Shown here: positions 3,174-60,741 of the stretch, in pieces
Layout: every line of letters begins with the position of its first letter
How positions within the stretch are numbered: the stretch's first letter is position 1
Source: Gammaproteobacteria bacterium
Lineage (GTDB): Bacteria; Pseudomonadota; Gammaproteobacteria; Eutrophobiales; Eutrophobiaceae
NCBI GenBank assembly: GCA_965116495.1
Contig: OZ220696.1
Span: forward strand, 3,552,001-3,616,000
Reading direction: 5' to 3'
Length of the DNA: 64,000 bases
The notes under the pieces: generated by a model
The model's input: only the letters and a program-made list of their open reading frames with translations
Database searches by the model: none
Told to the model about the DNA's origin: nothing
Program-made: the position numbers and the translations under genes

Positions 3174-4793
3174 ATGGTCCGGACGGTTACCGGTTTGCCC
3201 ACGCTATTCCCTACCGTTGTCCACGCACTGGCGGACGCGGCGGCAAGGAGTCCCGGGCGCGAGGCCCTGGTACTCGGTGATGAACGGCTCAATTACCGGG
3301 AATACCTGCGTTGCGTCGCCGGATTCAGCCGGGAGCTGGAAGCGCTGGAACTGGGCGGCTGCCGGGTGGCGCTGCTGATGGGCAATTCCATCGACGTGTG
3401 CATAGCGATGTTCGCCGTCCATGCCGCCCGCGCCGAGGCAGTCCCGTTGAACCCGGCCTACACGGCCCGCGAACTGCTTCCCATGCTGGAAGACGCCGAA
3501 GTGGCGGCCATAATTTACGATGAACCCTTCGATGCCATGGTCAGGTCCCTCGCGCCCGAACCGGGCATCAAACGCCTGCTCGCCGTCGGCAACAGCCGGC
3601 GTTTAACCGAATGGCGCGAGCGTCGGGATCTCGACAGCCTCGGTGACCTGCCGGAAGCAGAAGACCCGGCCACCCTGCAGTTTACCGGCGGTACCACCGG
3701 CACGGCCAAGGGCGCCTGTATCAGCCATCATTCTCTGTCCGTCAACGTGAGCCAGCGCGAGGCCATTTCCCCCACCCGCGATGACGTGGAAAGAACCTTG
3801 TGCATCATGCCCCTGTTCCATTGCTACGCAGTGTCCATGTGCCTGCATGCCATGGTCTACCGGCGCGGCGCCCTGGTCATCCTGCCGCGCTATCACCCCG
3901 AAGAAGTCATCGCCGCCCTGGTCCGGGAAAAGATCACCCTGTTTGCAGGCAGCCCCACGATTTTTACCGGGTTGCTGAATTATCCGGGTTTTGCCGAAAC
4001 CGATTTTTCCAACCTGTACATGTCCTCATCCGGTTCGGCGCCCCTGGCGGAAAATATACTGAGTAACTGGGAAAGGATCACCGGCACGCCGATACTTGAG
4101 GGCTATGGCCAGTCGGAGGCGGGGCCGGTGATCTCGTTCAACCCGCTGCACGGGGTCAGGAAACCGACATCGGTCGGCCTGCCCCTGCCCGCAACGGAAA
4201 TCCAGGTGGTCGACGTGGAGACCGGCACACAGGTACTCAGTACCGGGCAAAAAGGAGAAATCCGGGTGGCAGGCCCCCAGGTGATGGGCGGTTACCGGAA
4301 TCGCCCGCAGGAGACGGCCCAGGCATTGCGCGACGGCTGGCTCTACACGGGCGATATCGGTGAACTGGATGAGGAGGGCTACCTGTATATACGCGCCAGA
4401 AAAAAGGAGATGATCATTGTTTCCGGCTATAACGTGTACCCCCGCGAGGTCGAAGAGATACTGCATCAAAACCCCGGCGTCAGGGAAGCGGCCGTTGTCG
4501 CAAAGAAAGATGCCTACCGCGGCGAATTGCCGGTTGCATTTATAGTGCCGGGGAAAGAGGACGGCGTGGATGAGGAAGTATTGCGGCACTATTGTATGGA
4601 ATACCTGGCATCCTATAAGATCCCGGCGGAATTTCACTTCGTGGACAACCTGCCCAAGACTGTGGTAGGAAAAGTAGACAAAATCCTGTTGGCCGAAATG
4701 GCAAACCGGAATCCAGAATCCCGTCATTCCGGCGAACGCCGGAATCCGGAAGGCAATGAACCGTCGGCAGCAATTAATAACAAGAAATCTTGA
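3174..4793 (+). CDS. Long-chain acyl-CoA ligase / AMP-binding enzyme
   Basis: FTGGTTGTAKG P-loop, EGYGQSE, GWLYTGD, RKKEMIIVSGYNVYP and LPKTVVGKVDK motifs. Start placed at ATG 3174 just after the thiolase stop. The C-terminal tail is repeat-derived. Confidence 0.9.
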   Translation: MVRTVTGLPTLFPTVVHALADAAARSPGREALVLGDERLNYREYLRCVAGFSRELEALELGGCRVALLMGNSIDVCIAMFAVHAARAEAVPLNPAYTARELLPMLEDAEVAAIIYDEPFDAMVRSLAPEPGIKRLLAVGNSRRLTEWRERRDLDSLGDLPEAEDPATLQFTGGTTGTAKGACISHHSLSVNVSQREAISPTRDDVERTLCIMPLFHCYAVSMCLHAMVYRRGALVILPRYHPEEVIAALVREKITLFAGSPTIFTGLLNYPGFAETDFSNLYMSSSGSAPLAENILSNWERITGTPILEGYGQSEAGPVISFNPLHGVRKPTSVGLPLPATEIQVVDVETGTQVLSTGQKGEIRVAGPQVMGGYRNRPQETAQALRDGWLYTGDIGELDEEGYLYIRARKKEMIIVSGYNVYPREVEEILHQNPGVREAAVVAKKDAYRGELPVAFIVPGKEDGVDEEVLRHYCMEYLASYKIPAEFHFVDNLPKTVVGKVDKILLAEMANRNPESRHSGERRNPEGNEPSAAINNKKS

Positions 4794-4806
4794 GGTTGTC
4801 CGCCTT

Positions 4807-6951
4807 ATGCAGGAATACAATAACCCCATCCTGATCCAGCCTACAGGGGAAATACCCCGCAAAATCGGTATCATCGGCGCCGGCACCATCGGCCCGGACA
4901 TCGGTTATTACCTGAAAAGCACCCTCCCGGATTTAAGCCTGGTCCTGGTTGATATCAGCCGGGAAGCCCTGGAACGGGCTATCGACAGGATCCACGGGTA
5001 TGCACAAAAAGGGCTTGCCAGGGGGAAATTGACCCCCGCGCAGGCCGAACATGTACGGCAGAACCTCAGCGTTTCCCTTGACTATGAGGCCCTGGACGGA
5101 TGCGACTGGGTCGTCGAGGCCGCTACGGAAAATATTGAACTGAAAAAACAGATCTTCTCAAGGGTGGAGGCCATTTGCAGTGAACAGTGCATGATCACCT
5201 CAAATACCAGTTCCATCCCCGCCAGGCTGCTGTTTTCTCACCTGCATCATCCTGGGCGGACTACCGTTACCCATTTTTTTGCGCCGGCCTTCCGCAACCC
5301 GGTGGTCGAGGTGGTCGATTGGGAACAGGCCGATCCGGTATTCCTGCAACAACTGCGCCGGCTGTTTTACCTGACCGGCAAGGTCCCTATGGTCACCCGT
5401 GACGTAGTCTGCTTCATGCTCGACCGCATATTCGACAACTGGTGTAACGAAGCCGGTTATTTACTGTCCGGCGCCACCCCGGCACAAATCGACCACGCAG
5501 CCGGCGATTACGTACACGCCGGCCCGTTCTTTGTATTGAACATGTCCAACGGCAACCCGATCATCATTGAGACCAACTCCCTGCAAGCCGAACTGGAAGG
5601 CCCACACTACCGCCCCGCAGAAATTTTCCAGACAGCACAGGATTGTACTAATTTGGGACACCCACAAATTGCCAATTCACGTGATAATTTGGGACAACCA
5701 CAAATTGGCGGAAATGATAATTTGGGACAACCAGAAATTGCAGACCGGGGATTATTATGGGACGAGTCGGGAAAATGGTTAACAATCAAACCCGGCGAGA
5801 ACGTAGACGTGCCACAGGCTGTAACTGCGGAAATCCGGGACCGTCTGCTGGGGGTCCTGTTTTCGCAGACCGTGGATATCCTGGACCGTGACATCGGTAC
5901 GGCGGCCGACCTGGAACTGGGCTGCCGGCTTGCCTTTGCCTTCAGGCAGGGTCCCCTGGAACTGATGCGGGAACTGGGCGAACAGGAGAGTGAACGGATC
6001 CTGACGAAGTTTACCCGCGCAAAGCCCGGTATGCCCGGCGCGCAACGACCGCTGCGCGCGTACCAGGATTTTTACAGGTTTATCCTGGTCGATGAACTCG
6101 ACGGCGTAATCATCATCACGCTGCGCCGTCCCGAGGCATTGAATGCTTTGCATGATGACATGACCGACGAAATCCTGGCCGTATTGAAGCAATATGAGAA
6201 TGATCCGCAGACTACCGGATTCATCATTACCGGCTATGGCGGCGCGGCGTTCAGCGCGGGCGCCGACATCGGCAGGTTTCCCTCGATGCTGGGAGACAAG
6301 GACCAGAGTATTGATTACGCACGCGTGTGCTCCCGGTTACTGGTCTACCTGGACACCTGCGCGAAGCCGGTTGTCGCTGCGTTGAACGGCATGGCCCTGG
6401 GCGGCGGCCTGGAACTGGTGGTCCGCTGCCACGGCATCGTTGCCGTGGAGGACGCGTGGTTGCAATTTCCGGAGATTACCCTGGGTATTGCGCCGGGTCT
6501 GGGCGGCATGGTGATTCCCTACCGGCGCTGGCCTGCAGCCGCGGCGGCTTTTCATGCCATGCTGCTCAAAGCAAAAAAAATGGCTGCAACCGATGCAGCA
6601 GAGGCGGGGATAATTGACACCTTGGAGGATAACCATGCCGCACTGCTGCCCGGCGCGGTGCGGTTGGTCAGGGAACTCGCGGGTAAACCGCACACGCTTA
6701 CGGATACCCCCATCAATATTTCGCCTCCGGCTGCCGGAAAGGACAAACCACTCAGCTCCACCGGTCAAAAACTGAGCGCCGCGGTGACCGCTATTATCCG
6801 TCGGGCTATCGTTGATGCGGCGGCGGCCGTATCACTGGACGCAGCGCTGGAGGCCGGTTATAGCGCGTTCGGAGACAGCGCCTGCACGGCGGCAGCCCGT
6901 GAGGGCATCGGCGCGTTCATGGAAAAAAGAAAACCCGATTTTACAGATTAG
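4807..6951 (+). CDS. Bifunctional 3-hydroxyacyl-CoA dehydrogenase / enoyl-CoA hydratase (dehydrogenase domain first)
   Basis: GIIGAGTIG, VVEAATEN, SNTSS and THFF motifs, then a crotonase domain (FSAGADI, ALGGGLE, PEITLG). Start probably ATG 4807. Confidence 0.85.
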   Translation: MQEYNNPILIQPTGEIPRKIGIIGAGTIGPDIGYYLKSTLPDLSLVLVDISREALERAIDRIHGYAQKGLARGKLTPAQAEHVRQNLSVSLDYEALDGCDWVVEAATENIELKKQIFSRVEAICSEQCMITSNTSSIPARLLFSHLHHPGRTTVTHFFAPAFRNPVVEVVDWEQADPVFLQQLRRLFYLTGKVPMVTRDVVCFMLDRIFDNWCNEAGYLLSGATPAQIDHAAGDYVHAGPFFVLNMSNGNPIIIETNSLQAELEGPHYRPAEIFQTAQDCTNLGHPQIANSRDNLGQPQIGGNDNLGQPEIADRGLLWDESGKWLTIKPGENVDVPQAVTAEIRDRLLGVLFSQTVDILDRDIGTAADLELGCRLAFAFRQGPLELMRELGEQESERILTKFTRAKPGMPGAQRPLRAYQDFYRFILVDELDGVIIITLRRPEALNALHDDMTDEILAVLKQYENDPQTTGFIITGYGGAAFSAGADIGRFPSMLGDKDQSIDYARVCSRLLVYLDTCAKPVVAALNGMALGGGLELVVRCHGIVAVEDAWLQFPEITLGIAPGLGGMVIPYRRWPAAAAAFHAMLLKAKKMAATDAAEAGIIDTLEDNHAALLPGAVRLVRELAGKPHTLTDTPINISPPAAGKDKPLSSTGQKLSAAVTAIIRRAIVDAAAAVSLDAALEAGYSAFGDSACTAAAREGIGAFMEKRKPDFTD
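5650..5763 (+). repeat. Three tandem copies (plus a decayed fourth) of the AATTTGGGACACCCA(C/T)AAATT repeat inside the dehydrogenase ORF
   Basis: Copies start at 5650, 5686 and 5719 and encode NLGHPQI/NLGQPQI/NLGQPEI. The same motif forms intergenic hairpins elsewhere in the window. Confidence 0.9.
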
Positions 6952-60653: not shown

Positions 60654-60677
60654 TGTTATTCGGGGAATGAGGGACAG

Positions 60678-60741
60678 TCTGGATTCCCGCTTGTGCGGGG
60701 ATGACGTGCATGGCCTGGATTCCTGCTTGCGCAGGAATGGT
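60678..60741. repeat. Two tandem TGGATTCC..GGAATG palindromes
   Basis: CTGGATTCCCGCTTGTGCGGGGATGAC and CTGGATTCCTGCTTGCGCAGGAATG. Confidence 0.85.

Follow-up and report, generated by a model that had tools for sequence, protein, structure and literature searches.

The repeats studied here lie in a 64,000-nucleotide stretch of DNA, referred to below as the window (bases 3,552,001-3,616,000 of a closed 4.34-Mb gammaproteobacterial genome labelled G000), scattered among ordinary gammaproteobacterial housekeeping and transport genes. They are short inverted arms of several families, A to F, which form four classes, each sharing its arms with a cassette of one small gene, rather than six unrelated families. 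We propose, with a probability of roughly 60%, that each cassette protein copies its own gene-less dimers, mostly into gene junctions within ~100 kb of its gene. The proposal draws on cassettes, their deletion derivatives and polymorphic sites in G000 and its relatives, and on gradients of copy density with distance from the cassette sites of families A and B.

G000 was compared with a set of 22 genomes of the same genus (relatives carry labels from G001 to G022), of which those closely examined are at 80-90% median protein identity. Genes were called with a custom codon model. Two detection sets were used, one of strict patterns, with an order-4 Markov control as background, and one of sensitive profiles.

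Repeat classes and the genes between their arms

An earlier note on this DNA had described at least six unrelated motif families, and the six that it lists are all found at their places in the window, far above chance. Genome-wide, the strict patterns gave 213 arms in 100 loci for family A, 223 in 175 for B, 168 in 118 for C, 114 in 67 for D1, 132 in 76 for D2, 17 in 15 for D3, 176 in 57 for E and 81 in 51 for F, i.e. 15-175 loci per family where the Markov control predicts 0-6.5; with the sensitive profiles, 747 of 2127 gene gaps (about a third) hold at least one element. The majority of elements are dimers, in which two conserved inverted arms surround a spacer whose length is typical of the family (13 nt in A, ~43 in B, 40-45 in D, ~100 in E and 100-115 in F) and whose sequence is mostly unique. 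Family D resolves into D1, D2 and D3, the unit of family E is GAATTA(C/G) repeated with a period of 7, the arms of F are CGCAGAT, and single arms are non-palindromic in A, D, E and F. Family B is the Neisseria NTS repeat, of which perfect consensus copies occur twice in the window (18523 and 34221) and 17 times in the genome; it has CGTC, and the tag GTAG is found in none of the families. That the families are unrelated is not borne out, because C and D carry the arm motif GGGGWSAS (matched by C, D1 and D2), A carries seven of its eight letters (GGGWSAS), and all three go with Y1 transposases. Further repeats of G000 comprise family I (237 bp, 13 full copies, one arm at about 38410 of the window), family M (230-460 bp) and families H, J, K and L, and inner repeats have been inserted at the centre of C and H palindromes.

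The cassette search covered genes between inward-facing arms and, in addition, candidate gene families. The four gene families named in the earlier note have all been located between matching arms: Y1 transposases (TIRYT/RAYT-like) with A and D and, with arms seen on one side only, C, an Ssn-type GIY-YIG nuclease with B, a four-helix-bundle protein with E and a GxxExxY protein with F. In G000 an intact gene for a Y1 transposase of 276 amino acids (aa), at 403604-404431, lies between D1 arms, which enclose the gene in G001, G010 and G016 as well; this cassette has different flanks in the four genomes, with 95-96% protein identity. In G008 and G018 a Y1 gene lies between D2 arms, and in G016 C palindromes stand just downstream of one (with no upstream arm in the 230 nt viewed); G000 has neither gene. 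A 313-321-aa Y1 gene is found between A arms in seven relatives, at a junction 9.5 kb to the right of the window, where G000 has one empty A dimer and no A transposase elsewhere in its genome. The motifs HYH and Y-x3-NP were read in both the D1 and the A proteins, the A-type gene was missed by a Pfam Y1_Tnp search of the genus, residues 231-275 of the D1 protein, compared for the C-terminal helix-turn-helix of TnpA-Y1 subclass 2.1, gave only weak matches to helix-turn-helix families (E ~1e-3), and scores with NF047646, used for RAYT enzymes of groups 2 and 3, were 39-72 bits, under its cut-off of 80. The A transposase is present in 12 of the 12 relatives that have strict A arms, and the eight relatives without the gene have no arms (the genomes are kin and hence not independent); the A copy number, 0-185 within the genus, tracks the transposase. 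G010 possesses four A-type Y1 copies (including L232 and L235), against a single fixed copy in the other relatives.

The B cassette of G000 is a gene for a 96-aa single-domain GIY-YIG protein (3675106-3675396), which has B arms on both sides in G000 and G018 and arms beside it in G003, G004 and G009. Its residues Y8, Y19 and E66 are spaced like Y6, Y17 and E64 of SsnA as named in PMC11893778, a comparison of spacing alone (for this and the other papers cited, our statements refer to the passages available to us). The E cassette (1532780-1533157) encodes a 125-aa four-helix-bundle protein (TIGR02436); the gene occupies this junction in G000 and G007, and G022 has only collapsed arms there. The F dimer at 1118877-1119023 of G000 holds a 38-codon GxxExxY remnant, the shortest member of a series of deletions at one junction in which G001 retains an intact 132-aa gene and G016 83 codons. 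At orthologous sites, A, E and F cassettes are thus seen reduced by deletion to ordinary dimers that lack the gene.

Several other sources of the elements were considered. The IS200-type Y1 genes at 2244784 and 2252569 of G000 were rejected as drivers, since neither is intact and no arm of any family lies within 300 nt of them, and so was the status of miniature inverted-repeat transposable elements derived from an insertion sequence of the DDE type, as the enclosed genes are Y1, GIY-YIG, four-helix-bundle or GxxExxY and not DDE transposases. Capture of host DNA does not account for the spacers either: only 0-2 of the 26-43 spacers of a family have 18-mer matches outside it, and the matches inspected proved to be nested repeats. 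The claim that the repeats flank cassettes in general failed, as inward pairs 150-1500 nt apart are not commoner than outward ones (A 3 vs 10, B 5 vs 4, C 0 vs 1, D1 2 vs 4, D2 0 vs 4, E 1 vs 1, F 4 vs 2). General flanking of cargo was accordingly rejected, and a pair of D3 arms around an antitoxin gene is a single case, relatives having that antitoxin without the pair.

The distribution of copies around the cassette sites is uneven. The number of A loci per 100 kb is 55.6 at 1-10 kb from the cassette site, falls through 30 and 26 to 18 at 50-100 kb, and then to 1.5, 1.8 and 0.7 (beyond 500 kb); the same trend is seen in G014, G015 and G022, which keep the gene, with four loci in 800 kb of distant G022 sequence. 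Similar A spacers tend to be near each other, 77% of the most similar pairs lying within 100 kb compared with 33% of all pairs. The ssn gene is flanked by a variant B arm, and 16 of the 27 loci of this variant are within 100 kb of it (1.2 expected), while the standard variant has 11 of 103 loci in that range (4.7 expected), two of them within 50 kb. In the strict set, other families also peak at their own cassette (D1 5 loci vs 0.7 expected within 25 kb, F 6 vs 1.1 within 50 kb, E 7 vs 2.5 within 100 kb). Proximity to both sites, 10-70 kb to that of A and 60-120 kb to ssn, explains why the window holds so many A and B elements. The view of the earlier note that these are non-autonomous elements served in trans by candidate enzymes encoded elsewhere is supported as regards the matching genes and the empty sites, but for A and B the spread is strongly local rather than free. 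No paper describing a density gradient around a cognate gene was found in a literature search that excluded supplements and most subscription journals.

The association of arms with the E and F genes extends across Gammaproteobacteria. Among the 40 best-scoring four-helix-bundle loci, taken from 40 of 58 matching genomes, 33 have inverted arms around the gene (3 of 221 controls) and 31 have arms of period 7 on both sides (5 of 221 controls), the sequence of the unit varying by genome; among 21 full-length GxxExxY loci, from 30 matches listed, 17 have inverted arms (3 of 117 controls), with a period of 8-9. A scan of GTDB genomes for GGGAAT-type heptamers upstream of the four-helix-bundle motif returned 43 loci, mostly in Xanthomonadales-type genomes and none in a Xanthomonas genome, of which 36 pass a strict protein motif, 30 have at least two strict reverse units downstream and 26 have both. 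The gene right after many of these loci is presumably accC, judging by its start. One four-helix-bundle locus of the class-wide sample, L125, has TAACTGA-type arms. Within the genus itself, a TTTTAG-type heptamer surrounds a second four-helix-bundle gene, and three more arm sequences surround other GxxExxY genes (L016, L019-L021, L023, L025 and L029). We found no paper linking either gene family to flanking arms, within the same limits of search.

The two proteins differ in what can be said about their activity. The GxxExxY family has conserved D75, E85 and K87 (three rows were omitted from the protein alignment), and a fold model built on the alignment (pLDDT 93) matches the Cas4 protein SSO0001 (E 4e-5, TM 0.61) as well as lambda-exonuclease folds. 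The four-helix-bundle protein matches PDB entry 2RLD and weakly 2GSC, the copy of a relative has a weak Avd match, and its conserved polar residues are Q37, R40, S44, N48, E51 and E74; we know of no activity of this protein.

Mechanism and competing explanations

The mechanism that we envisage would begin at the replication fork, or in the course of transcription, with an arm pair extruding as a hairpin of single-stranded DNA. Its cognate protein would then cut at the arms, using HUH chemistry in families A, C and D, the GIY-YIG site in B and a Cas4-like PD-(D/E)XK site in F; the E protein, because it has no known catalytic site, would more likely bind the heptamer arms and recruit a host nuclease. 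Y1 enzymes cut and join hairpins of single-stranded DNA (PMC6006769), and Ssn cuts single-stranded NTS DNA, mobility having been raised there only as a hypothesis (PMC11893778, Chenal et al. 2025). Copying would place the dimer beside a stop codon, a tolerated position, and would often oust the dimer already there; its arms would subsequently grow or shrink by slippage, its spacer would flip or drift, and arms lying over the ends of open reading frames (ORFs) would add codons. Each protein would act mostly near its own gene, and the swarm would outlive the gene. That the cognate gene drove the family appears very probable for A, probable for B and D1 and somewhat favoured for F; for E the attribution is tentative, at odds slightly below even.

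A number of observations weigh against this proposal. We infer mobility itself, from comparison of sequences. With the sensitive profiles, enrichment within 100 kb of the cassette is not significant for D1 (P 0.37) and F (P 0.069) and modest for E (P 0.027), these P values being uncorrected for the three distances tried with the profiles and the four in the strict set; the A and B cassette sites are 50 kb apart, and total B counts cannot separate them. Few spacers resemble the cassette gene above the 99th percentile of the null (4 of 37 in D1, 2 of 32 in E, 3 of 31 in F, 0 of 34 in B), so that the candidate origin of spacers as gene remnants holds for a few, most having no traceable origin. 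Many apparently empty sites retain one or two arm units, i.e. they are collapsed remnants and not pristine sites, which indicates that loss by collapse is common, and no consistent target-site duplication could be read, the relatives being too divergent or the sites collapsed. Finally, intact cognate genes of A, C, D2 and F are all lacking in G000, although it contains identical A copies, and the four-helix-bundle gene is missing in four of six E-rich genomes.

The last two observations would be expected if Y1 (HUH) transposases moved every family in trans, with the four-helix-bundle, GxxExxY and perhaps ssn genes being passengers between the arms: in G000 the orphan families A, C, D2 and F survive alongside a single intact Y1 gene, E persists where its gene is lacking, and a role in the spread of repeats has been published only for Y1 enzymes (PMC3116915; bioRxiv 10.1101/2021.07.10.451892). 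We nevertheless consider this explanation unlikely, since the vicinity of the intact D1 Y1 gene shows no enrichment of any other family, the arm geometry follows the family of the enclosed gene throughout the class, and the swarm of the B variant centres on ssn and not on a Y1 gene.

Comparison of orthologous junctions bears on a second alternative. Empty and filled sites in relatives, a comparison suggested in the earlier note, have indeed been observed: window junctions are empty, filled or occupied by another family in ten relatives. G000 and G022 have 348 junctions in common. Elements occupy 104 of these in G000 and 73 in G022, with an overlap of 56 (21.8 expected), made up of 39 junctions with the same family and 17 with different ones. 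The A spacers of the two genomes have the same similarity, 0.54, whether they are taken from one shared junction (n=9) or from different ones; this points to turnover or to flipping in place. One E dimer is inverted in place between the two genomes. At about 9228 of the window G022 follows G015 on both flanks and matches G000 over an E element and the first 48 nt of the next gene, a pattern that reads as a short conversion tract and constitutes one clear case; two more E sites have the same identity peak without an outgroup. Three of the four scored E spacers shared between genomes are 95-98% identical, compared with 78-88% for the flanking proteins. Such tracts, together with the D1 cassettes of 95-96% protein identity in different flanks, would fit homing between co-resident lineages, in which the cassette protein nicks a junction and recombination copies the dimer with short flanks to the same junction of another genome, new sites within a genome being rare. 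This leaves the distance gradients within the chromosome unexplained, and longer near-identical tracts without elements are also common to these genomes, which makes homing an improbable account of the whole.

The least probable of the explanations is that the elements are RNA hairpins (terminators or stabilisers) selected by the host and produced by slippage and ordinary recombination without a dedicated enzyme: they do sit on the 3' side of genes and can form hairpins, related genomes have elements at the same junctions and similar heptamers have been interpreted as regulatory (PMC4692102, PMC4679880), but each family shares its arms with one gene cassette, deletion series and swaps of family at the same junction occur, and A varies from 0 to 185 copies in one genus following the transposase.

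Elements at gene ends and in the window

Nine positions at which elements had been said to begin at stop codons are all in or within ~7 nt of one. As a general rule, the stop-codon bias holds, relative to uniform placement in roomy gaps, for E, F, D1, A and slightly D2, and fails for B and C. In gaps between tandem genes, loci no more than 12 nt from the upstream stop, compared with those equally close to the downstream start, number 31 vs 15 of 36 for E, 25 vs 9 of 40 for F, 20 vs 6 of 38 for D1, 20 vs 2 of 46 for A, 28 vs 12 of 59 for D2, 37 vs 10 of 114 for C and 24 vs 11 of 150 for B, and 26 of the 36 E loci overlap the stop; a shuffle of the strict patterns gave enrichment for A, D1 and E only. 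Part of this bias could be due to selection against hits in ribosome-binding sites. The families do not cluster on top of one another: two or more families share 105 gaps genome-wide, where the null gives a mean of 122 (range 98-149), and 6 in the window, where it gives 7.8; with strict patterns there are 44 against 75. Excess nesting was thus rejected by two nulls, and as co-occupancy is at or below chance, the nests of the window follow from high local density.

Arms had also been said to contribute codons to at least seven proteins. Direct comparison with orthologues supports this for six ORFs of the window, and the seventh is a predicted N-terminus. The C-termini of the predicted acyl-CoA ligase, MATE, AcrB, DUF255 and ksgA products are lengthened or replaced by arms, and in the predicted dehydrogenase/hydratase A arms form an in-frame loop in G000 and six of seven relatives, in 1-3 copies; the right arm of an F dimer probably supplies the start of the DUF3604 signal peptide. 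Genome-wide, strict arms overlap 94 of 2749 confident genes, an uncurated count that includes chance hits. To call the repeats an engine of protein extension and local rearrangement is an overstatement, the tails being short and different between lineages; one gene fusion and one in-place inversion occur in relatives.

The elements of the window are described below in the order of its coordinates, and have no assigned strand unless one is given. A D2 dimer with GGGGTCAGAGTAAAA arms and a spacer of ~45 nt (1074..1151) is collapsed in G022. A B arm of the CGTC/NTS type (4721..4749, plus strand) adds ~22 C-terminal codons to the acyl-CoA ligase gene, the orthologues of which end at or near ANRNP, and three A arms (5649..5740, plus strand) are in frame in the hydroxyacyl-CoA dehydrogenase/enoyl-CoA hydratase gene. 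A C palindrome directly past a stop codon (6954..6983) is absent in G015, G014, G022, G019 and G002. The E dimer at 9220..9344, with heptamer arms of which the left lies over a stop codon, corresponds to an empty site in G014, G015 and G020, to F or H type elements in G001, G019, G018, G002 and G003, and to a near-identical copy in G022. The end of the MATE gene (13790..13959, plus strand) is a composite of a GGACAGA-type heptamer run, B arms and a C palindrome, giving a replacement tail of ~30 codons. A single E arm begins in a stop codon at 14654..14701 (plus strand), where G022 has TGAATTG only, and the right arm of the E dimer at 16317..16422 provides the stop of a Rieske gene on the minus strand. 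They are followed by an H palindrome with an inner insert (17640..17726), absent from the list in the earlier note, by A arms (18392..18701) that enclose a B dimer (18522-18610, with the perfect NTS consensus at 18523), and by C arms split by an inner repeat of ~50 nt, 2 nt past a stop (19565..19642).

A small antitoxin-like gene contains a B arm at 20990..21018 (minus strand). The F dimer at 24031..24233 has CGCAGAT arms, its right part lying over the predicted N-terminus of DUF3604; in G020 the dimer at this junction (24011-24243) is deleted, and the deaminase and DUF3604 genes are fused in frame (1117 codons). The adjacent adenosine-deaminase-like gene of the window (22462-24011) has an apparent frameshift at ~22740-22790, relatives having one frame of 500-560 codons, and may be an assembly error or a pseudogene. 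The D3 arms at 26665..27186 face inward around the helix-turn-helix antitoxin gene and gene remnants, and are the sole such D3 pair in the genome. C palindromes are found past a stop at 28563..28593 and at 33208..33238, and a B arm supplies the last codons of the AcrB-family gene (32955..32983, plus strand). An A dimer (34156-34212) is placed between B arms (34143..34248, perfect NTS at 34221), and the one at 36379..36435 has a 13-nt spacer identical to it.

In the right part of the window, an A dimer 7 nt past the folA stop (47400..47456) is replaced by D2 at the same junction in G001, and the D1 dimer with GGGGTCAGGTCGCAC arms (48940..49051) has arms matching the intact Y1 cassette at 403444-404465 of G000. 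B arms and a lone F arm stand at 51033..51212, two tandem A arms at 54065..54121 (plus strand), and an A dimer followed by a B arm and two more A arms at 55561..55807. Contigs ~97% identical to the window were found in a run labelled sponge metagenome, and the strain-level read comparison covers the right third of the window only; in contigs of this run (X6), one arm fewer is seen at the tandem A arms, and the last-named A dimer is kept without 55623-55811. Further to the right are an F dimer between convergent genes (56654..56759), into which A arms are inserted in G022 and G016, an A dimer giving the last codons (LGHP) and the stop of ksgA (58663..58719), with several to >20 arms there in relatives, B arms between pdxA and ksgA (59501..59632) and two B arms between surA and pdxA (60679..60743, minus strand), replaced by A or F in relatives and missing from G018, G020 and G002. 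G001 has very long arrays, of >20 A arms at the junction of 58640 and >30 B arms at that of 64373, just right of the window.

Other features of the window are five 21-nt tandem repeats in a short ORF (215-340) and an amtB-glnK pair doubled in tandem with a third glnK-like gene upstream (52394-55553). An island at 36499-44380, which comprises a 549-aa ORF of no assigned family and a 1925-aa RTX-repeat/FG-GAP protein, is bounded by tRNA-Arg and a duplicate of the tRNA-Arg 3' end (~44340-44380), and is absent from the orthologous position of G014 and G015. Several copies of the last 270 nt of thyA (45748-46020) are spread along the region in G015, G022, G019 and G001, which suggests an integration hotspot in thyA. 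Toxin-antitoxin-like modules are found at 20376-21034, 26411-27157 and 46145-46848, with junctions variable in relatives, one of them within the D3 arms.

Significance and relation to known systems

If the cassette proteins do copy the repeats, this role would be new for two of them, the four-helix-bundle and GxxExxY proteins, giving a role to two large gene families of no assigned function (TIGR02436 and TIGR04256), an origin to heptamer repeat families published without a mechanism, and genomic support to the existing hypothesis of NTS repeats being spread by their own Ssn nucleases. With the distance gradient, an orphan repeat family could be assigned to a gene by simple computation, even after loss of the gene, as in family A, and putative nucleases of 120-135 aa with short and diverse arms are a candidate source of compact sequence-specific enzymes for single-stranded DNA. 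In a wider perspective, which we regard as slightly more doubtful than the attribution of family E, the REPIN life cycle may have evolved repeatedly around unrelated small proteins; Avd-like four-helix-bundle and Cas4-like GxxExxY genes would then drive two very widespread, undescribed one-gene selfish elements, each of which recognises short tandem arms of its own, deposits copies lacking the gene close to its locus and reaches sister genomes through short conversion tracts, and the heptamers of Xanthomonas and Beggiatoaceae would be their gene-less swarms.

Families B, C and D are members of published kinds. B has the exact consensus of the NTS/SRM repeats of the Ssn system and a single-domain GIY-YIG gene between such arms (PMC11893778); these repeats are the CGTC REPs of Di Nocera et al. 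2013 (PMC3733652). It differs in the concentration, within 100 kb of the resident gene, of the arm variant that flanks this gene. Like TIRtrons/TIRYT (PMC3733652) and TnpA-Y1 subclass 2.1 (Quentin et al. 2018, PMC6006769), C and D have arms with GGGGWSAS that flank Y1 genes (on one side only, as far as seen, for C), with HuH and Y-x3-NP read in the D1 protein, and dispersed gene-less dimers. Family A works like a TIRYT family without fully meeting its motif, of which it has seven of eight letters, and its Y1 is longer and divergent; a steep local gradient such as that observed here was not met in the available parts of those descriptions.

The REPIN-RAYT system (Bertels and Rainey, PMC3116915; bioRxiv 10.1101/119735, 10.1101/2021.07.10.451892) resembles the elements described here in having two conserved inverted arms around a variable spacer, an extragenic location and a single-copy gene at a fixed junction (A in seven relatives). 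The present elements, however, lack the GTAG tag, the arms of A, D, E and F are not palindromic, only one of the four gene classes encodes HUH enzymes, the D1 cassette occurs at different loci, and A-type genes number four in G010. Rickettsia palindromic elements (as presented in PMC3733652) are likewise inserted in frame in a conserved enzyme and added to protein ends, but the insert found here consists of tandem single A arms in variable copy number and is known from sequence only. Family E is most like the heptamers GGGAATC of Xanthomonas (Rehm et al. 2015, PMC4692102) and TAACTGA of Beggiatoaceae (MacGregor 2015, PMC4679880), with which it shares the period of 7, the inverted pairs and the overlap with stop codons; the former have G3 tracts able to form quadruplexes, which family E does not. 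Those two papers, in the available passages and by word search, name no gene enclosed by the heptamers, whereas here GGGAAT-type arms were found to enclose four-helix-bundle genes, mostly in Xanthomonadales-type genomes.

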